From the IMG/VR virus record IMGVR_UViG_2706794695_000013: 38,573 nt of DNA, one strand, 5' to 3'. The position numbers and the translations under genes are program-made. Every line of letters starts with the position of its first letter. Within the stretch, counting starts at the first letter, position 1. This document shows positions 8,421 through 38,573 of this stretch, one piece after another. The stretch comes from a virus. Lineage: Duplodnaviria; Heunggongvirae; Uroviricota; Caudoviricetes. Under the pieces are notes generated by a model. The model saw only the letters and a list, made by a program, of their open reading frames with translations, was not told the DNA's origin and ran no database searches.

Positions 8421-8910
8421 TTACTGCGAAAGTTTGTTAATGGAAAGGAAGCCGCCAAAGTTGCCGACGTTATTGCGAAACTTACAGCCGCTCAGGCATT
8501 TGCTGCATTTATCCTTCGTGATATCGGACGTCGGCTGATCATATTCATCCGCGACCGCCGGACCGTGATAACCGCACTCATCGCCGCGATAGGTCCAGGT
8601 GCAGGTGTTGGCCAGCATGATACGTCCCGGAAAAACGGCACCGTCCGTTTCCGTCGGCGTGNNNNNNNNNNNNNNNNNNNNNNNNNNNNNNNNNNNNNNN
8701 NNNNNNNNNNNNNNNNNNNNNNCCCTGAATGGGATACGCCTGATACTGTCGCCCCTGCCAGGTGACCGGCTCACCTTTTTCGTTCTGCTCATTACAGAAA
8801 AAATAACGTTCTCCACCGACCTCTGTCAGATCGATTTCCCAGAGCACCACCTGGGCTGACTGAGTGAGGCGTGTCGTCTCATGATGTGTTTCCTGTGGAA
8901 TATCCTGCAT
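8421..8910 (-). CDS. L: Tail tip protein L, interrupted and shortened by N gap 8662-8722
   Basis: N-terminal piece MQDIPQETHHETTRLTQSAQVVLWEIDLTEVGGERYFFCNEQNEKGEPVTWQGRQYQ and C-terminal piece ...RIMLANTCTWTYRGDECGY...GGFLSINKLSQ both match lambda L; total span is shorter than a 232-aa L gene. Confidence 0.8.
8662..8722. other. Assembly gap (61 N) inside L
   Basis: Run of N; part of the L coding sequence is missing. Confidence 0.95.
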
Positions 8911-9249: not shown

Positions 9250-12200
9250 TACCGATATGCTCCACTTAACCGACCACCATCACGGGCCTGCTGTTGCATA
9301 AAGTCCGCTGCCGCTTTTTTCCCAAGGTCATAAACCACCTTCAGGGCAGCCGGACCTATCTGCCCGTTCGTGCCATCGTTATTGATCTCGATGTTGTACT
9401 GCGGGGCAAACATCGCCATACCTGAACCACCAATATCCGCCACAACCCCCAGCTTACCGTCAGCACCACGACGCAGTGGCAGAATGGCTTCAGGTCCCGC
9501 TTCCCCCATCACACCCGCGCCTTTTGCAAAAGCAAAAAACGTCGGACGGTTAACCACCGTGCCACTGTAACGACTCAAATCAGCAGACTGATAAATCCCC
9601 CCATTGGCATTCAGGGAAAGGCTGCTGAGATCAAATCCCAGTACACTGCCAATCCCTTTTATCGATTTCATCATGGTTGCCTGCGCCAGGATTTTCGCCA
9701 TATCTGACAGCACAGAAGAGGTGAAGGATTTGAAATTGAGTTTGCCGGTAGTGACAAAAGTTGCCAGGCCATTTCCCATGTTGCTGAAGGCTGACGAGAA
9801 CACCTGTTCTGCTGTTCCTGCCGTATTATCTGCATCCACGGTAAAATCCTGAAATGCACGCAGGACTCCGTTTTTCCAGTTACCCTGCACAACTTCAAGC
9901 TGTTGCCAGTAACGGCGATTCTCATTCAGTTGTCGGTTCAGGCTCTCCGTCAGCGCCTGCTCGGCCTTTCTGTAGTCATCCGTGTTATATGTTCCTTTCT
10001 GCTCACTATCCCGCCTCAACTGCTCCAGCTGTTGCTGGTATTTCTGGCGAAGACTCAGTTGTACCTGATATCGCTGCCGCTGCTGATCACCCATACCCAC
10101 CGTGGCGATATCCAGGTCATGTTGCTGACGCTGAGCGCGCTCTTCTTCAGCCAGTTGACTGGTCAGCTGAATTGTTTTTTTCTTCAGCTCGTTGAGTGCC
10201 GTCTGTTTCTGAAGCTCCTGCTGTTTTACATCCAGCAGCGTCAGTGCCTGAATCAGTTCATCTTTACGGGCCAGCACACTCTTTTCATCTGCCGTCAGTT
10301 TTTTCCCGTCCAGGTCGCTGATGCGCTGCTGCAGAGCCAGAAGCTGTTTATGCGCTTCTGTCATCCTTTCCGTGGCAATGCCTGCTGACTGTCTGGCAGC
10401 AGCAATCTGTCCTTCCACCTGTGCCTGTTGCTGACTGTACTGCAGCAATAACCGGGTGGCCTCATCATTACGGGGTTCGCGTGTTTTTTTCTTACCGGAT
10501 GCCAGGGCTTTCTCGTAACGTTCATTTTCACGTTGTATCGCCGCATCCCTGACAGCCTGATCGGCGTACTGCATGGAATTAATACGCGCAATTTCACGCT
10601 GATGTCGTGCTGCTTCCGTTTCATTCATCCGGTTCAGTGCAGCATTTTCAGCATTACGGCGTTTCTGTTGCTCCTGATAATTCCGCTCTGCCTGCTCTTT
10701 TGCATCCTGCAAATCCTTCTGGCGTTTTTTCTCCTGAAGCTCGTTAAGACGCTGCTGATCGTACTCAACCTGAGAAGATGATGCCGTCCAGGGGAGTCTT
10801 TTCGCCCGCGACACTTTCTCCTGTAAAGCGGAAATCTGTTCATCCAGCGAGTCTTCACGACCAATATTCATGGCCGCATCCCAGAAACGACTCCATAAAT
10901 CAGACAGATACTTCAGCGTACTGCCCAGCGCATTGAGGTTATTATCAATATCCGCAGTACGCCGACCGGTTTCCTCTGCCAGTGCAGACATGGCTATCCG
11001 TGCCGCATCACTGGACCGCCCCTGTTCCCCAAGGACGCGTATCTGCTCAAGCTGAGTGGCAGTAAGAAAATGCAGCTCATTGTCCAGAGCCTTCGCGGCA
11101 TTTACAGGATCATCCTTCAGCCGCTTAAACTGATTTATGGTATCGCTGACCGACTGGCCAACCGATCGCTCCATCTGTGCGGCAGCTCTCGCCACCATAC
11201 CGATATCGTTTCCACGAAATGCACCACTCCCCACCACCTGAGCCAGCGCACCGGCTGCAGCATGTTGCGTAATACCATTCCCGGAAATAGCACGACTGAG
11301 CGTCCACAGCTGCCCGGCAGTGACTCCGGCATAATGCCCCGTCAGCGACAACTGGCGGTTAAATTCTTCCCCCTCCTTCTGACCGTCATACCAGGCTTTA
11401 CCCAGACCATAGACAGCCGCGGCAATACCGCCAATAACCCCGCCCAGCATCATGCCTTTCGGTGACATCAGTGTGTCTATCCATCCGGCACGGTTAGCCA
11501 GCGTTATTCCGGACCCCCTCAGCGCCCCTAAATTGCCGCGGGCCAGTTCACCTATCAGAACGCCTATCTCCTGGCGGGCTGCTGCACTTTTCAGACCCAG
11601 CGAATGCGTGGCTTTTCCTGCCTGCTCCATTTTGCGGATATACACTTCTGCAGCACTGCTTACCCCCAGCTGGGCAGCCTTAGCACGAAGCAACTCAGAA
11701 GATGAAAGATTCTGGCGGGTTGCCTGCTCTTTAAGCTGACGGATAAACGCCACTTTCTGTCGGGTAGCCTCTTCCTCAGCCTGTGTAAGAACACGGGTTT
11801 TCGCCGTAACCTCAGAAATCAGCGCCAGATAATCCTGCTGACCAATCCCGCCACTGTTTCTGGCCTGTCGGATCTGCTGCTGAATACGCTGTAATTCCTG
11901 CAGCCCCGCACTGGCCTGTTTCACACTGTCAATCTGACGATAAAACGCAGCAGCCGCTTTATCCTGAGCCTCCGCCAGAGCCATGGCCTGCGCCTGTTCC
12001 TCGCGCATTTTCTGGCTCAGTGCCTCCATGCGCTGGCGGGTTTTCTCCACCTCGCGGGACATGCGTTCATGAGCCTGTGCGTTCTTCTCCACCGTCTGCG
12101 CATGGACGGATGCGGCTGTTGCAGCCGAAGAAGCCGCCTGCGTTGTCTGCCGGGCGGCCTGAGTCTGACGCTCCATAAAACGCTGCATACGGGCAGAAGA

Positions 12201-23728: not shown

Positions 23729-23739
23729 NNNNNNNNNNN
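23729..23739. other. Assembly gap (11 N) inside the holin gene
   Basis: Run of N. Confidence 0.95.
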
Positions 23740-32539: not shown

Positions 32540-33099
32540 GCGTTAGTTTCTCCACAGACACAAAACGCCACGACGCCCGGAGCTGCACACTCGCGGGCGT
32601 CACTCTTTTCTGGAGCGCAAAAGATTTTGTAGACCAGTGCTGCATGCTCCTGGAGCTTCGAAATTGACAGATACAACTCATCATTAATTGCTGTCTGCTC
32701 GTGTGGCTCCACTACCCCATCTTCGATTGCCGAACGAATCTGCTTTGAGTAACTCCCGATCTGTTCGATGACTTCCAGCAGGCGCTGGTTTATATCGGCG
32801 TTCTCTACTTCCTCAATTTCAGGAAGCGATACAAACACCCCACCAGCAGACTGTGCGACAGCATCCGCAATGTAGTGAGTGCCAGCCGCGCGCTGTAAAA
32901 TCATTGCCCATCCCAGCGGGAAAATCTGATCGCCATCTGCACGAAGGCGGTTGAATAAAGCGTTCTCTGTTACATCCAGCCACTCAGCAGCTTCAGCGTA
33001 ACCCCCCGGCAACGCCGCGATAGTTTTTCTGACAGCTTTCACGTACCACTCAGGCTGTTTTTCTACTTTCCAGTGATGCTTACCCACGGTTAGCCTCAT
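32536..33099 (-). CDS. Hypothetical early protein, 187 aa (possibly a CII/CP76-like regulator)
   Basis: First gene after cro in the early-right operon; acidic C-terminal half; family assignment is from memory only. Confidence 0.45.
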   Translation of the reverse strand: MRLTVGKHHWKVEKQPEWYVKAVRKTIAALPGGYAEAAEWLDVTENALFNRLRADGDQIFPLGWAMILQRAAGTHYIADAVAQSAGGVFVSLPEIEEVENADINQRLLEVIEQIGSYSKQIRSAIEDGVVEPHEQTAINDELYLSISKLQEHAALVYKIFCAPEKSDARECAAPGVVAFCVCGETNA

Positions 33100-33130
33100 C
33101 GTTCTGTGGTTAAAAATTGAAGGTGTTCTG

Positions 33131-33331
33131 TTAATCTTTCGGATAGATATCCGGTCTTAAGTCAGATTTCGTAATTGCACCTGACGTGCATTGCTCAAGT
33201 TTTTTAGCCAGCACAAAACTGGCTTTTTTATAACCATTGAAAACCAGCCGTAAGTAGCCTGGTGTTGAGCCAACTTTTCCGGCCAACTCACCCTGCTGTT
33301 CTTTGGTTAAAGAGTCCCAATACGCTTTCAT
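33131..33331 (-). CDS. Cro-like HTH repressor (66 aa)
   Basis: Internal ATG at 33331 with GGAGG upstream; HTH-like segment GELAGKVGSTPGYLRLVFNGYKK; divergent from the repressor gene. Confidence 0.7.
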   Translation of the reverse strand: MKAYWDSLTKEQQGELAGKVGSTPGYLRLVFNGYKKASFVLAKKLEQCTSGAITKSDLRPDIYPKD

Positions 33332-33334
33332 ACA

Positions 33335-33407
33335 ATATGTACCTCCGGTATACATATTACATGATTGAGATGAACCTTCAAGATACTTGTACCTTATCGG
33401 TACAAAG
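33335..33407. promoter_or_regulatory. OR-like operator region between cro and cI
   Basis: Two near-palindromes sharing the core TGTACC-N(3-5)-GGTACA: atatgtacctccggtatacatat and acttgtaccttatcggtacaaag. Confidence 0.5.
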
Positions 33408-33421
33408 GTTTTAATTTCTTT

Positions 33422-34096
33422 ATGAAAACAGTCCATGACATCCGGCGGTCTAACGCCAGAAAACTGAGAGATGGTGTTGGCGGGAATTCTTCCTTTGCCA
33501 CCATGATTGATCGCGAGCCAACCCAGACCAGCAGGTTTATGGGAGATGGTGCAACTAAAAATATCGGTGACAGCATGGCACGGCACATCGAAAAATGTTT
33601 CGACCTGCCTGTCGGATGGCTTGATCAAGAACACCAGACAACGAACATCACAAAAAAACCTGACGTTTCAATCACTAACAAACAAATAACGTTAGTCCCT
33701 GTCATATCATGGGTACAGGCCGGAGCATGGAAAGAAGTTGGCTATTCTGAGGTTGATTTGAGCACAGCAGAAACTTATCCCTGCCCTGTACCCTGTGGCG
33801 AAATGACTTATATCTTGCGGGTGATTGGTGATTCAATGATTGATGAGTACCGCCCGGGAGACATGATTTTTGTTGATCCTGAAGTCCCTGCCTGCCACGG
33901 TGACGACGTTATTGCATTGATGCACGATACAGGCGAAACCACCTTCAAGCGGTTGATAGAAGATGGAACACAGCGTTATCTCAAAGCATTAAACCCAAAC
34001 TGGCCTGAGCCTTACATTAAGATTAACGGTAATTGCTCTATAATTGGTACAGTGATTTTCTCAGGAAAACCAAGAAGATACATAATAAAGGCCTAA
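33422..34096 (+). CDS. CI-type repressor with C-terminal S24 (LexA-like) autopeptidase domain
   Basis: 224 aa; catalytic Ser in VIGDSM and Lys in TFKRL; N-terminal DNA-binding region; divergent from cro. Confidence 0.85.
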   Translation: MKTVHDIRRSNARKLRDGVGGNSSFATMIDREPTQTSRFMGDGATKNIGDSMARHIEKCFDLPVGWLDQEHQTTNITKKPDVSITNKQITLVPVISWVQAGAWKEVGYSEVDLSTAETYPCPVPCGEMTYILRVIGDSMIDEYRPGDMIFVDPEVPACHGDDVIALMHDTGETTFKRLIEDGTQRYLKALNPNWPEPYIKINGNCSIIGTVIFSGKPRRYIIKA

Positions 34097-34107
34097 TCAA
34101 TATTTAT

Positions 34108-34131
34108 AACCTGCTTCGGCAGGTTTTTTTA
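34108..34131 (+). terminator. Rho-independent terminator after the repressor gene
   Basis: acctgc ttcg gcaggt followed by TTTTTTT. Confidence 0.7.
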
Positions 34132-34134
34132 TAC

Positions 34135-34163
34135 TTGACAATGTACCTTTGGGATACATAATG
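34135..34163 (+). promoter_or_regulatory. PL-like promoter with overlapping OL-like operator
   Basis: TTGACA, 16-nt spacer, CATAAT; the spacer carries atgtacctttgggatacat, the same motif as the OR sites. Confidence 0.5.
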
Positions 34164-34782
34164 TATCTAAAAGAAACACAGCACAGGCAAGATTAAACAA
34201 AATTTGGTTGTAACACGGCGTATGGCACATGCGTCGTTAGCGGTCTGGGGACGTTAAAGGGGACAATCCACTCCTTGCTCGGGCAAACAAACCAGGTAGC
34301 CGGAATGTGCAAGTCAATGATGATGCTGATAAGACGCCTAACCAGCGTGGCGATTCGGTTTGACGCCTGGGAAGAGACCAGGGTGCAACGATGAGGACAT
34401 TTATGGAACCGCGACAAAGTGTGGTGCCGTAACTGGCTAAGTGCTCTCAGCGTTGTGGTGAATGCGCAGGCTGATGCGCGAAAGACATTGCAGCTAATGC
34501 GGAAAAGAGCTGTTCGGCGGGGCAATTAAACGCCCGTGAGAGTCTGAAATAACCGCAAGCCGGAGATCAGCACCGGTCACCACAACAGCCACTGCTTTGG
34601 CGGTACCAGTTTGTACACTTGCTTCCGGCTGGTACCGCTCTTTTTACAAAACAGAGAAGAGCATCACCGGACGACGGGCTCATAACCAAATCCATCCGGG
34701 CGGCTGCCACCGCAGGTGTTCTTCTCTGTTTTGTGGAGAAACCAACCGACCTTGCAGGGTCGATATGATTAGGAGCAGCAAA

Positions 34783-35145
34783 ATGGCTAGCGAACGCAGT
34801 ACTGATGTGCAGGCATTTATTGGGGAGCTGGACGGCGGCGTATTTGAAACCAAAATCGGCGCAGTTCTCAGTGAAGTCGCTTCCGGTGTGATGAACACGA
34901 AAACCAAAGGTAAGGTCTCACTCAACCTGGAAATCGAACCATTTGATGAGAACCGTGTGAAAATCAAACACAAACTCTCATATGTTCGCCCGACTAACCG
35001 CGGGAAAATTTCCGAAGAAGACACCACCGAAACGCCGATGTATGTCAATCGCGGTGGTCGCCTGACTATTCTGCAGGAAGACCAGGGACAATTACTGACT
35101 CTTGCCGGTGAACCTGACGGAAAACTCCGCGCAGCAGGTCATTAA
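34783..35145 (+). CDS. Hypothetical protein, 120 aa (YfdP-like by recollection)
   Basis: ATG at 34783 with AGGAG 7 nt upstream (MASERSTDVQAFIGELDGG...); track ORF starts at an upstream TTG. Confidence 0.55.
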   Translation: MASERSTDVQAFIGELDGGVFETKIGAVLSEVASGVMNTKTKGKVSLNLEIEPFDENRVKIKHKLSYVRPTNRGKISEEDTTETPMYVNRGGRLTILQEDQGQLLTLAGEPDGKLRAAGH

Positions 35146-35210
35146 TATCGTTCTTAATTAACCGATTATTTATCTCATCACTGAATATCTTTATATAGTG
35201 AGGACTTATT

Positions 35211-36035
35211 ATGTCTCAGAACTTAGACGCAACCGCAATTAATCAAATCCATGCCCTTATTTCTGCTCAGGGTGTTAATGAAATTATCAGTAAGATTGGT
35301 GCCGATGCTGTGGCATTGCCTGAGAATTTCCGCATTCATGATCTGGAAAAATTAAATTTAAATCGTTTCCGTTTCCGTGGTGCGCTTTCCACTGCCAGCA
35401 TCGATGACTTTACTCGTTATTCTAAAGATCTTGCAGATGAAGGCACCCGCTGCTTTATCGATGCTGATAATATGCGTGCCGTCAGTGTTCTTAACCTGGG
35501 TACTATTGATGAACCAGGTCACGCAGATAACACCGCCACTCTCAAACTGAAAAAGACAGCTCCGTTCTCTGCTCTGTTGTCTGTTAATGGCGAGCGTAAC
35601 TCCCAGAAGTCACTGGCAGAATGGATTGAAGACTGGGCCGACTACCTTGTGGGCTTTGATGCTAATGGTGACGCCATTCAGGCAACCAAAGCGGCTGCGG
35701 CGATCCGTAAAATCACAATTGAAGCGAACCAGACCGCTGATTTTGAAGATAATGACTTCAGCGGCAAACGCTCCCTGATGGAGTCTGTCGAAGCGAAGAC
35801 CAAAGACATTATGCCAGTGGCATTTGAATTTAAATGCGTTCCGTTTGAAGGTCTGAAAGAACGTCCGTTTAAATTACGCCTCAGCATTATCACTGGCGAT
35901 CGTCCTGTACTGGTTCTGCGCATTATTCAGCTGGAAGCGGTACAGGAAGAAATGGCTAACGAATTTCGTGATCTGCTTGTTGAGAAATTCAAAGACAGCA
36001 AAGTAGAAACCTTTATTGGTACTTTCACCGCCTGA
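35211..36035 (+). CDS. Hypothetical protein, 274 aa (YfdQ-like / DUF2303 by recollection)
   Basis: Complete [24 protein letters not shown]...; co-oriented and adjacent to the 120-aa gene. Confidence 0.55.
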
Positions 36036-36047
36036 TTTCATTACTGC

Positions 36048-36069
36048 AAATGCCCCTGCGGGGGCATTT
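36048..36069 (+). terminator. Strong hairpin after the 274-aa gene (terminator-like)
   Basis: aaatgcccc tgcg ggggcattt, perfect 9-bp stem. Confidence 0.4.
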
Positions 36070-36223
36070 ACGGAAGCGATAATTTTAACTATTGCCGCCC
36101 CTATAAAGAACCATTAAACAATAACGTGACGTAGCTATTGATAGTAAATGAAGCACTTGCAAAATAATTGCATTGCGTATATATACACACATGTGTTGTA
36201 TTACAGCGATAATGGTAAAGCAA

Positions 36224-37006
36224 ATGATTAACTCTGAAGCAATTGAGCAACTAATGTGGCTATGGTCCTTATTTGACATTAAATTCTTATCTATTCTTGC
36301 CGCTGCCTTCACTATATATTTTGGCGTGCAAAAAATATCAAAAAAGGTGACAGTGTCGTATTCAGCAAATGCAAGTAGAATATATGACATGCATATATCA
36401 ACCATAATCCTGAATAATAAAAGAGATAATGCAATTGCTATATCTTCAATCAATATGGAGGTTGAAGGTAAAGGGATACTACAAGTTATTAAATTTGACT
36501 CCCCTCTTCTTTTAAAGAACTATGATTCTTTAAAAGTTGAACCACCAAAATTTAGCAGCCTTTACAATAATGATGGCGTAGTTAAGTTAGATATTTCTGA
36601 TAAGTTTCATTTTTATATAATCACGACATCTGGAGATGAAATTAAATGTATTTCTGAAAATAAATATGTAGCACCAAACATGGAAAACAAAATAGCTACA
36701 GACATAAGAAAATTTAATGGCATTGTCTTAACAAACAGAATGTCTTATATTTTTTTCTATGCAAATGACAACGGAGAGAAATACTGCATAATAGATGTTT
36801 CATTGTTCATAAATGGTGACAACCCATTTCATTTTAATTTTTTAAAAGAAGATGAATTAAGAGATTTTTCTAGCATCCTTATTAGTTACGGATATCACCA
36901 ACAGTTTAAAAGTTATGCATTGTTTAAAATAGACAACCATCTTGCTCCTTCTTTGGTTTTAAATAAATCAATGATAGAAAATAATATTATTGAAATGAAT
37001 AAGTAA
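36224..37006 (+). CDS. Membrane-anchored protein of unknown function, AT-rich cassette (start uncertain, 36173-36224)
   Basis: N-terminal hydrophobic helix LMWLWSLFDIKFLSILAAAFTIYFGV then a soluble domain rich in N/K/I/F; GC far below the neighbours; possible own promoter TTGCAA-17-TATACA near 36157-36185. Confidence 0.6.
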   Translation: MINSEAIEQLMWLWSLFDIKFLSILAAAFTIYFGVQKISKKVTVSYSANASRIYDMHISTIILNNKRDNAIAISSINMEVEGKGILQVIKFDSPLLLKNYDSLKVEPPKFSSLYNNDGVVKLDISDKFHFYIITTSGDEIKCISENKYVAPNMENKIATDIRKFNGIVLTNRMSYIFFYANDNGEKYCIIDVSLFINGDNPFHFNFLKEDELRDFSSILISYGYHQQFKSYALFKIDNHLAPSLVLNKSMIENNIIEMNK

Positions 37007-37042
37007 CTCACCGGGTGCAGCCGGTTATGATGGAGAAATGAT

Positions 37043-37324
37043 ATGAATACCTTGTTTTTACTGATGGCTGAATTCAATACCCCAAACATTGAACTCTCAG
37101 CAGTTAGTCAAAAATACTTTGGTATGAGTCCAGCCACAGCAGAAGCAAAAGCAAACGCTTGTAAGTTGCCTGTACCTACATATCGCATCGGTACATCACA
37201 AAAAGCAAAACGTTGCATCAATATTCAGGATCTTGCGGAATACATAGACAAAAGACGAGAAGAAGGACGTATCGAGTGGGAACAGGTCAGAACAGGCAAA
37301 CAGAAGGGCAAAGAACATCACTAA
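37043..37324 (+). CDS. PrtN-like small DNA-binding protein (regulator or excisionase-like)
   Basis: 93 aa; MNTLFLLMAEFNTPNIELSAVSQKYFGMSPATAEAKANACKLPVPTYRIG... resembles the PrtN / phage regulatory family. Confidence 0.55.
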   Translation: MNTLFLLMAEFNTPNIELSAVSQKYFGMSPATAEAKANACKLPVPTYRIGTSQKAKRCINIQDLAEYIDKRREEGRIEWEQVRTGKQKGKEHH

Positions 37325-37326
37325 AG

Positions 37327-37353
37327 AAAAAACCCGCCTAAAGGCGGGTTTTC
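37327..37353. terminator. Bidirectional rho-independent terminator between convergent genes
   Basis: aaaaaa cccgcc taaa ggcggg tttt. Confidence 0.7.
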
Positions 37354-37371
37354 AAAAAGCACCAGCTATGA

Positions 37372-37545
37372 TCATGCTGCTTTGCGACGACGAAGCTTAC
37401 CCTGCTGCTCTTTACCAGAGACAGTAGCGTGAGTGAACGCATTAGGAGCAGCCTTCATCAGAACTTCAACAGCAGCACCCATACCTGCGAATGCTTTCAT
37501 TGTGTCGAACTTAACCTGTGGCTTGGTTGCTTTTTGATCTTCCAT
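37372..37545 (-). CDS. Small basic protein, 57 aa (below the ORF-track length cutoff)
   Basis: My manual translation: MEDQKATKPQVKFDTMKAFAGMGAAVEVLMKAAPNAFTHATVSGKEQQGKLRRRKAA; GGAG 6 nt upstream; ends at the bidirectional terminator. Confidence 0.4.
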   Translation of the reverse strand: MEDQKATKPQVKFDTMKAFAGMGAAVEVLMKAAPNAFTHATVSGKEQQGKLRRRKAA

Positions 37546-37584
37546 AGAAAACTCCAGAAGCTATACCGAAACAATTCCTGTTGT

Positions 37585-38004
37585 TTACTCATCATCAATA
37601 GATGATACGCAATATTTATTTTTAAATTTAAGGTTCTTTGGCGTAACTTCATCAGATATATCAAAACCGTCCAGAATTCTATTGAATGTAGCTTCTGGCA
37701 TATCATCATGAACGGAAATCTCACCCGATCGCTGCTTTCTAACCATGTTATCCACTCGCCAAATTATAGCTTCAGCGTAAACAACATAACTTGGATGCTT
37801 GATAAAGCGATGATCACCAGAATTCAAGACGCAAGACGGATCGTGGGGGACACCATCCTTGATACTAGAAATATTAACAACTAAAACACAATAACAATCG
37901 TTAACGGGGTAATAAACAGGATCATTACAAATCACATGAAGATGATTGCATGGCCCAGTTGGGGCAAGCACAGTTCCTTTCCTGTATGGCTGATAATCCG
38001 TCAT
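37585..38004 (-). CDS. Hypothetical protein, 139 aa, translationally coupled to the Panacea-like gene (candidate toxin)
   Basis: ATGA overlap with the upstream stop at 38001-38004; Cys/His-containing MTDYQPYRKGTVLAPTGPCNHLHVICNDP...; no recognisable family. Confidence 0.55.
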   Translation of the reverse strand: MTDYQPYRKGTVLAPTGPCNHLHVICNDPVYYPVNDCYCVLVVNISSIKDGVPHDPSCVLNSGDHRFIKHPSYVVYAEAIIWRVDNMVRKQRSGEISVHDDMPEATFNRILDGFDISDEVTPKNLKFKNKYCVSSIDDE

Positions 38005-38573
38005 GATAATTGCAAAGAAAATTCCTTAAGTTTCTGAGATTCTTCCATTTTGCCAATTATACGATTAGCCTCATCCTCGCTTTTACCCTCACTGATCAGC
38101 ATTTCTTTCAGGTCTATAGGCTTACGAGAATTGCCAGGATTGTGCCACTCTGGACAAACGCTTTCTAAATGCGTCATGTTTGCGAGATCAAATCGGTTCA
38201 TATGCCCATACAGAGAATAGATTTCATCTAAAATCCGGATATCTGCACGGCTCAACTCATCAAAGACCTCGTCTGCATCCATTTCCCTCGGATCTGAACG
38301 CAACAACACATCATGCCCGTTCGTCTCTATCAGGTTGTACCAGTAGTCACCAATACCTTCAGCCTTACCACGAATCAAGTTCAGCGTATTCGACATGACT
38401 GGACCAAATTTCATAGAGTAAAGGCTATCTTCGCCGATCATCCTGCCATGCTTCAAAATCGACTTGCGGTTAGACAGATAGAGCAGCTTCATCAATTTCA
38501 GATATGCCATGCGCCCACCTCGCTTAAGAAGTAGGTATGCAGCCATTTGAGCTACTTTTTCTTCGCAAAACAT
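38001..38573 (-). CDS. Panacea-domain (DUF4065, SocA/GepA-like) protein, candidate antitoxin; N-terminus may extend beyond the window
   Basis: VAQMAAYLLLKRGGRMAYLKLMKLLYLSNRK...SMKFGPVMSNTLNLI fits the Panacea pattern (T-x-LKL-x-KLLY ... F-x-A-x2-GPV); ORF begins at the last base of the window. Confidence 0.6.
   Translation of the reverse strand: MFCEEKVAQMAAYLLLKRGGRMAYLKLMKLLYLSNRKSILKHGRMIGEDSLYSMKFGPVMSNTLNLIRGKAEGIGDYWYNLIETNGHDVLLRSDPREMDADEVFDELSRADIRILDEIYSLYGHMNRFDLANMTHLESVCPEWHNPGNSRKPIDLKEMLISEGKSEDEANRIIGKMEESQKLKEFSLQLS

Follow-up and report, generated by a model that had tools for sequence, protein, structure and literature searches.

The 38,573-nucleotide stretch of DNA analyzed here over its whole length (the window; IMG/VR virus record IMGVR_UViG_2706794695_000013, Caudoviricetes) is an Escherichia coli lambda-like siphovirus prophage located at the chromosomal dusA/zur locus, and complete E. 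coli genomes carry identical DNA with unchanged gene order. Our subject is an AT-rich cassette in this prophage (36085-37011, + strand), which consists of a 139-nt leader, one gene for a membrane-anchored protein of 260 residues, and five further nucleotides. When the window was aligned by blastn with three sibling dusA-site prophages without the gene, homology stopped at 36084/85 and resumed at 37011/12; the foreign segment is therefore the 926 bp from 36085 to 37011. A first-pass annotation, made from the sequence alone, had placed a single-gene island at 36140-37010 and read it as a candidate superinfection-exclusion or abortive-infection gene or conversion determinant; the observation is confirmed, the island being real and its limits needing the slight correction just given, and the interpretation is partly supported by what follows. 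The guanine-plus-cytosine (GC) content of the gene is 0.29, and 0.26 at third codon positions (GC3), against a window mean of 0.51 (standard deviation 0.06, 783-bp windows), which makes it the lowest stretch and the only genuine low-GC island of the window. A second low-GC patch near position 861 is an artefact of a 250-base run of N at 1445-1694 inside an Ala/Ser-rich tail-fibre gene (1371-2924), which gives false low-GC readings in sliding windows; two shorter runs of N lie at 8662-8722 (61 bases) and 23729-23739 (11 bases). No direct or inverted repeats flank the cassette, ruling out a transposon-like element. The segment is of foreign origin and a single-gene unit, and its variable presence among near-identical prophages, its sharp junctions and its deviant base composition are those of a moron, that is, a horizontally exchanged single-gene accessory module of temperate phages and, as described below, of other mobile elements.

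The gene occupies 36224-37006 (+ strand) and corresponds to RefSeq WP_047654657.1 and to PHROG 14996, a family with no function assigned. The longest open reading frame (ORF), 36173-37006, would start at a TTG and encode 277 residues; the supported start, however, is the ATG at 36224, shared with the RefSeq record, the 260-position PHROG profile and all homologues, so that of the 260-277 residues originally allowed for this single ORF the lower figure is favored. The PHROG match is full length (E = 2.9e-178, profile positions 1-260 of 260), beginning at residue 18 of the TTG-extended ORF. An N-terminal transmembrane (TM) helix, also proposed in the first-pass annotation, is supported by the hydrophobic 19-mer FDIKFLSILAAAFTIYFGV (mean hydropathy 1.65), by a helix at residues 4-39 of the AlphaFold2 model and by topology prediction, and the protein has no further hydrophobic segment. 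We place this helix at residues ~20-36 (36281-36331, + strand), with a conserved Y32/F33 end followed by a K-rich juxtamembrane segment from K37. Beyond it, an Ig-like beta-sandwich domain (residues ~42-141; 36347-36646, + strand), predicted to be cytoplasmic, is followed by a C-terminal alpha/beta domain (residues ~156-260; 36689-37003, + strand) for which there is no fold relative.

For the membrane topology we considered 75 diverse family members, applying hydropathy and the positive-inside rule to 15 residues on each side of the helix. K/R residues average 2.8 and D/E residues 0.33 in the 15 positions that follow the helix, as against 0.43 and 1.76 in the 15 that precede it; the charge bias has the same sign in 74 of the 75 members, and the C-terminal part of none of them contains another hydrophobic segment. 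Two members (P0031 and P0062) carry an extra N-terminal signal or TM segment, and their orientation is consistent with that of the others. This positive-inside bias predicts a periplasmic location for the short N-terminus and a cytoplasmic one for the body of ~220 residues, that is, a bitopic inner-membrane protein of N-out/C-in orientation. Conservation within the family is highest where the helix reaches the cytoplasm and in the juxtamembrane stretch (Y32, F33, K37), which argues that this part of the protein does more than anchor it passively; N65, D68, P94, K98, S111, C142 and Y179 are conserved as well.

Searches for known relatives bore out the earlier statement that the protein has no recognisable domain. 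The protein matched no Pfam family (2025 copy) at E ≤ 0.01, nothing in NCBIfam (June 2026) and nothing in a sequence-profile search of the PDB; PADLOC likewise came back empty, diverged homologues gave nothing in these sequence searches either, and a fold search against BFVD gave nothing at E ≤ 0.001. Among the isolated phages of INPHARED, no record with the gene was found by megablast or tblastn. The RefSeq accession and the PHROG number are absent from the literature searched, broader literature searches returned no description of the family, and the family is thus not described in the literature we searched. With PADLOC, Pfam and NCBIfam all returning nothing, it is overlooked by current annotation tools.

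The family is nevertheless a sizeable one. A full hidden-Markov-model scan of 1.84 billion representatives yielded 221 family representatives (at 50% identity) with E ≤ 0.001, 141 of them with E ≤ 1e-10; among the representatives listed, nearly all are ~240-275 residues long and align over most of the profile, the architecture being constant. By word-indexed search 11 clusters were recovered, from E. coli, Citrobacter and Klebsiella, and a word-indexed profile search gave only 20 proteins. Named members come from Providencia, Raoultella, Pseudomonas, Pseudoalteromonas and a metagenome-assembled genome (MAG) of Syntrophobacteraceae, all annotated as hypothetical, and tblastn adds homologues in Acinetobacter. 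The gene is present in 99 of 5426 complete E. coli genomes, of which 2763 carry the neighboring yfdQ, and gave one match among 185,579 species-representative genomes. Compared with their surroundings, the homologues are AT-rich at all enterobacterial loci (GC 0.29-0.35 vs 0.46-0.50). In E. coli E89 the gene is interrupted ~75 codons in by IS1X2, and two other E. coli copies are one base shorter than the query, one of these being annotated as two genes.

The operon around the cassette agrees with the first-pass annotation, which had assigned the cassette to the early-left operon and noted a PrtN-like gene after it. The order is that of an S24 LexA/cI-type repressor gene, ymfK (33422-34096, + strand), an intrinsic terminator 3' of it (34108-34125), directly after this a near-consensus sigma-70 site (TTGACA-16-CATAAT, 11/12, 34135-34162) that is likely the PL-type early-left promoter, then yfdP (+ strand), yfdQ (DUF2303; 35211-36035, + strand), the cassette and, directly 3' of it, a PrtN-family, excisionase-like (xis-like) gene (37043-37324, + strand; PF11112, E = 3e-23; PHROG 1300, 'excisionase'). 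No terminator was found between the cassette gene and the PrtN-like gene, which is itself followed by a strong bidirectional terminator (37329-37353; fold -18.1 kcal/mol, z -4.9), and a scan of 33000-38573 for RNA elements gave only sub-threshold Rfam matches.

Two smaller features bear on how the cassette is delimited and perhaps expressed. A GC-rich hairpin 3' of yfdQ (36048-36069, + strand; 9-bp stem, -19.5 kcal/mol including flanks, z -2.75) had been regarded as one bracket of the cassette; the hairpin exists, but it lies within the flank that cassette-free prophages also have, and thus is a 3' feature of yfdQ and does not bound the cassette. It lacks a U-tract, and no terminator was called there. 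The AT-rich leader (36086-36223, + strand, 139 nt) contains two candidate sigma-70 sites, TTGATA-16-CAAAAT at 36138-36165 and TACACA-18-GATAAT at 36184-36213, each matching at 9 of 12 positions, and in a promoter scan such matches were not more frequent than in shuffled sequence. The leader can be partly aligned with that of a 64%-identical Citrobacter gene, including a TTGA-N-AAAA(T/A) element, which lends mild support to a regulatory region travelling with the gene. We regard a promoter belonging to the cassette itself as plausible, with these sites as its candidates.

Might the cassette then be a silent or decaying passenger with no present function in this lysogen, either a remnant silenced by H-NS or a toxic, selfish membrane protein kept by hitch-hiking? 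The very low GC content, the chance-level promoter matches in the leader and the occasional inactivation of E. coli copies by IS1 or frameshift are all compatible with such a fate. However, the reading frame is intact, and dN/dS between two E. coli alleles of 95.5% nucleotide identity is 0.33-0.42, indicating that the gene is under purifying selection; the 221 diverged representatives are full length, with conserved motifs and a confidently folding domain; and pseudogenes are a small minority. We therefore hold a mere passenger to be very unlikely.

The surroundings of the homologues are, we believe, the most telling evidence on what kind of gene this is. They fall into ~17 distinct contexts with no common partner gene, most of them accessory or defence positions. 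In the dusA-site prophages themselves the yfdQ-PrtN slot is variable, sibling prophages holding three alternative cargoes in it: yfdR with a 288-aa protein that has a sub-threshold SieB match (18.8 bits vs a cut-off of 26), yfdR with methyltransferase and exonuclease remnants, and yfdR with a 342-aa protein of unknown function and an integrase. In a P2-like prophage of Providencia stuartii the homologue lies between portal/ogr and gpA, and the gpA-gpQ interval has been defined as the P2 defence hotspot, where old and tin reside (Rousset et al. 2022, PMC9122126). In two P2-like prophages of Pseudomonas it lies at the prophage end beside the portal gene and comes immediately after a gene for a 456-aa AAA_16/NB-ARC-like ATPase, and in one of the two rnlAB is nearby. 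In a P2-like prophage of Pseudoalteromonas it follows an S24 cI-like repressor gene by 36 bp on the same strand, the position that rexAB has in lambda, and in the Syntrophobacteraceae MAG it stands directly after a type I restriction-modification (R-M) operon (hsdMSR). Two small Acinetobacter plasmids carry homologues, one of them beside mazEF.

Further contexts complete the picture. Three different Citrobacter islands have in common a module made of a 477-aa protein of unknown function, the homologue, a 68-aa protein and an integrase, and one of these islands, with AlpA, Ash and a D5-type primase, is satellite-like. In a lambda-type IMG/VR phage (L045) the homologue immediately precedes an 82-aa ORF and the integrase, and a second (L050) has a similar layout, judged by ORF size only. 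The homologue of Acinetobacter phage ABMM1 adjoins the integrase on the strand opposite to its neighbors, and that of a P22-like Pseudomonas prophage is the only + strand gene among lysis and head genes on the - strand. Homologues occur also in nin-type regions of Klebsiella, Raoultella and two IMG/VR phages, the last two with an HTH-Peptidase_M78 gene upstream; between a Rha/ANT antirepressor gene and a gene for a DUF4145 protein in two IMG/VR contigs (L051/L052); next to an HNH endonuclease gene in a Buttiauxella MAG; and at a prophage edge in a soil-metagenome contig, where the cargo includes an AHH nuclease toxin. In a Logan contig (P0104) the homologue lies among small unannotated genes adjoining an SRAP-domain gene, an uninformative context.

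The neighbors of the homologues are mutually unrelated (the STAND-like ATPase of 456 residues in Pseudomonas, and proteins of 427 residues in Acinetobacter, 477 in Citrobacter and 361 in Providencia), so that the moving unit must be the single gene. A two-gene system as a general rule was accordingly rejected, and would be possible locally in Pseudomonas. There, the gene for the STAND-type ATPase of 455/456 residues lies in the same orientation as the homologue, 41-49 bp ahead of it (8589-9959 in L003, 8584-9951 in L004), and has weak PADLOC candidate matches (PDC-S59 at 1.6e-6); it could serve defence separately, or the pair could make up a local two-gene system in which the membrane protein is the effector. 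In Klebsiella prophages (L005-L008), the stop codon of the homologue is followed at a distance of 2 nt by a co-directional 113-aa ORF without family match (10776-11117), which may thus be co-transcribed with the homologue and has no counterpart in the window.

These contexts also allow us to weigh the possibility that the cargo has nothing to do with defence, acting instead in lysogenic conversion or host physiology (an envelope-stress, colonisation or membrane-protein-modulating factor) or as an early lytic function on the host membrane. Such a role would suit a gene that sits in the early-left operon, which is transcribed on induction, just as it would suit those homologues of nin-type early regions that share their strand with replication genes, and no homology to a defence family speaks against it. 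On the other hand, the gene is missing from most close relatives of the same prophage, so that the phage can do without it; it is found on plasmids, within an R-M island, right after a repressor gene and as an opposite-strand moron; and it spans Enterobacterales, Pseudomonas, Acinetobacter, Pseudoalteromonas and a deltaproteobacterial MAG, a breadth not expected of a host-specific trait. A non-defence function therefore appears quite unlikely to us.

The first-pass annotation had pointed toward exclusion-type cargo, a reading that is strengthened by the recurrence of homologues at accessory and defence positions of unrelated mobile elements: in the P2 gpA-gpQ interval, at the portal-proximal site with the STAND-like ATPase, after hsdMSR, beside mazEF and near rnlAB, and further beside integrases, after a repressor gene, as an opposite-strand moron and on plasmids. 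When eight P4-hotspot loci of unknown function were chosen at random, six gave protection against phages (PMC13586616). From the recurrent defence-type placement taken together with this base rate we infer, as a moderately probable reading, that the gene is a lysogen-expressed, one-protein exclusion or abortive-infection determinant.

Several considerations pull in the other direction. The gene sits in an operon that is expected to be repressed in lysogens, and its leader sites, as noted, do not rise above chance. In E. coli, H-NS commonly silences DNA as AT-rich as this (29% GC), and among the 99 copies in that species at least three look inactivated. The family alignment shows no conserved residues of catalytic type, no conserved His and no catalytic pattern, the predicted structure offers no functional handle, and a lone TM helix is a weak basis for a pore. 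Hotspots, moreover, hold non-defence cargo too. Finally, the protein matched none of the 5027 models of PADLOC-DB 2.0.0 (2023) at E ≤ 1, a collection that includes Abi families, Rex, Old, PD-T4/T7/lambda, HEC and PDC candidates, three diverged homologues had no PADLOC match at E ≤ 0.1, and no similarity was seen to SieB (model PF14163 unmatched), Rex or Abi families in Pfam.

The comparison with lambda sieB and rex that was drawn at the outset thus holds for position and architecture and fails for homology, there being no similarity to SieB, Rex or the defence models of PADLOC. Like lambda SieB and RexAB and P22 SieB, the protein is a membrane-associated, phage-dispensable product of an accessory gene located in or near the immunity or early-left region of a lambdoid prophage, and one family member, that of Pseudoalteromonas, lies directly after a repressor gene as rexAB does. 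It differs from them in sequence, in size and in topology, having one TM helix with a cytoplasmic two-domain body of 220 residues, and Rex needs two proteins. By layout only, a further lead is lactococcal AbiP, which reportedly acts in abortive infection as the product of one gene, is anchored to the membrane by its N-terminus and binds nucleic acid with its cytosolic portion (Domingues et al. 2004, 2008). In both cases a lone gene in low-GC DNA of a mobile element encodes an N-terminally anchored protein whose body is cytoplasmic; AbiP, however, belongs to another host phylum, and no nucleic-acid-binding fold was recognised in the present protein.

Not every phage-encoded membrane protein that protects its host does so by aborting the infected cell: P22 SieA, T4 Imm and HK97 gp15 interfere with phage DNA entry without killing the cell. 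We therefore weighed, separately from the estimate given above, a variant of the defence reading in which the protein would exclude superinfecting phages at the DNA-entry step, by disturbing either the injection conduit or the inner-membrane factor on which incoming phages rely. Its inner-membrane location and prophage origin fit such a role, as do an early-left, xis-proximal position resembling that of other lambdoid exclusion genes and the weakly SieB-like membrane protein that a sibling prophage has in the same slot. The closest parallel would be P22 SieA, a prophage-expressed inner-membrane injection blocker that is likewise the product of a single prophage gene and is sufficient for exclusion alone (PMC10883804). 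SieA, however, has 162-164 residues, three predicted TM segments and no large soluble domain (PMC10883804), and no homology between it and our protein was detected. Known injection blockers act through periplasmic or intramembrane parts, whereas the bulk of this protein is predicted to be cytoplasmic, and family members occur on plasmids, beside chromosomal R-M genes and in hosts with very different phages, which fits a general intracellular sensor better than a blocker of one injection machine. On balance we consider a DNA-entry blocker in the manner of SieA unlikely, if still a serious alternative.

Two further groups of known systems share parts of the picture. The cargo of the P2 gpA-gpQ and P4 psu-int hotspots (old, tin, PARIS and others; Rousset et al. 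2022, PMC9122126) is AT-rich and exchanged as cassettes, and homologues of our gene are found in gpA-gpQ (Providencia) and at the portal-proximal end (Pseudomonas P2-like prophages). It matches no PADLOC-modelled hotspot system, however, and in the window it resides in a lambdoid prophage, not in P2 or P4. The TM effectors of CBASS, Pycsar, retron and RT-nitrilase systems, which are thought to kill by membrane disruption (PMC9122126), also join a membrane-spanning helix to a cytoplasmic sensing part, but these effectors need a signal-making partner, and our protein has no conserved partner gene and no match to a nucleotide-binding domain. In short, it resembles the lambdoid exclusion genes and the P2/P4 hotspot cargo by position and architecture and belongs to none of these by sequence and fold.

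Within the anti-phage reading, we lean toward intracellular sensing that ends in membrane damage or arrest, because the body is predicted to be cytoplasmic and the TM/juxtamembrane segment is the most conserved part of the family. In such a scheme the short acidic N-terminus would lie in the periplasm, a single helix would cross the membrane, and the Ig-like beta-sandwich and the compact alpha/beta domain, ~220 residues together, would face the cytoplasm, where, at the inner surface of the membrane, they might recognise a component of an infecting phage. In response, the conserved helix and the juxtamembrane segment might self-associate or engage a membrane partner, and the outcome would be either a collapse of membrane integrity that aborts the infection or a block of genome entry or early development. 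A bolder version of this scenario would make the protein a new self-contained sensor-effector, in which the Ig-like and C-terminal domains detect the phage component and the TM/juxtamembrane segment oligomerises and depolarises the cell: a one-protein abortive-infection system unrelated to described defence families and shuttled among lambdoid phages, P2-like phages, satellites and plasmids across Proteobacteria. This we regard as possible, perhaps, though doubtful.

If the gene does protect lysogens, a compact one-gene defence family of 260 residues with a previously unseen domain would be added to the repertoire, one that extends over Enterobacterales, Pseudomonas, Acinetobacter, Pseudoalteromonas and beyond, and the yfdQ-xis slot of dusA-site lambdoid prophages would become a cargo hotspot worth mining. 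Many accessory exclusion and defence families are now being found; this one is compact, widespread and invisible to current annotation, and has a domain for which no fold relative is known.

A few observations concern the rest of the prophage. Upstream of yfdP, ~600 nt of GC-rich DNA (0.53) without annotated gene follow the near-consensus sigma-70 site (region 34097-34782), and in strain CFS3273 an IS91 is inserted within this gene-free stretch. At the end of the window, on the - strand, a gene for a Panacea/SocA-domain protein (38001-38573; PF13274, E = 1.8e-18) overlaps by 4 nt a gene for a 139-aa protein without assigned function (37585-38004; PHROG 19071), after which comes a 57-aa ORF (37372-37545). 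This region (37372-38573) looks like a toxin-antitoxin-like pair at the prophage end; the pair had no PADLOC match and is probably a second accessory module adjoining the cassette operon. In E. coli O25b:H4 (CP015085), genes for a reverse transcriptase and a SLATT-domain protein lie between the tail-fibre assembly gene and the integrase (39708-41607 of locus L027). They are retron/DRT-like defence cargo at the opposite end of the prophage, and both ends of this prophage type thus carry accessory modules.

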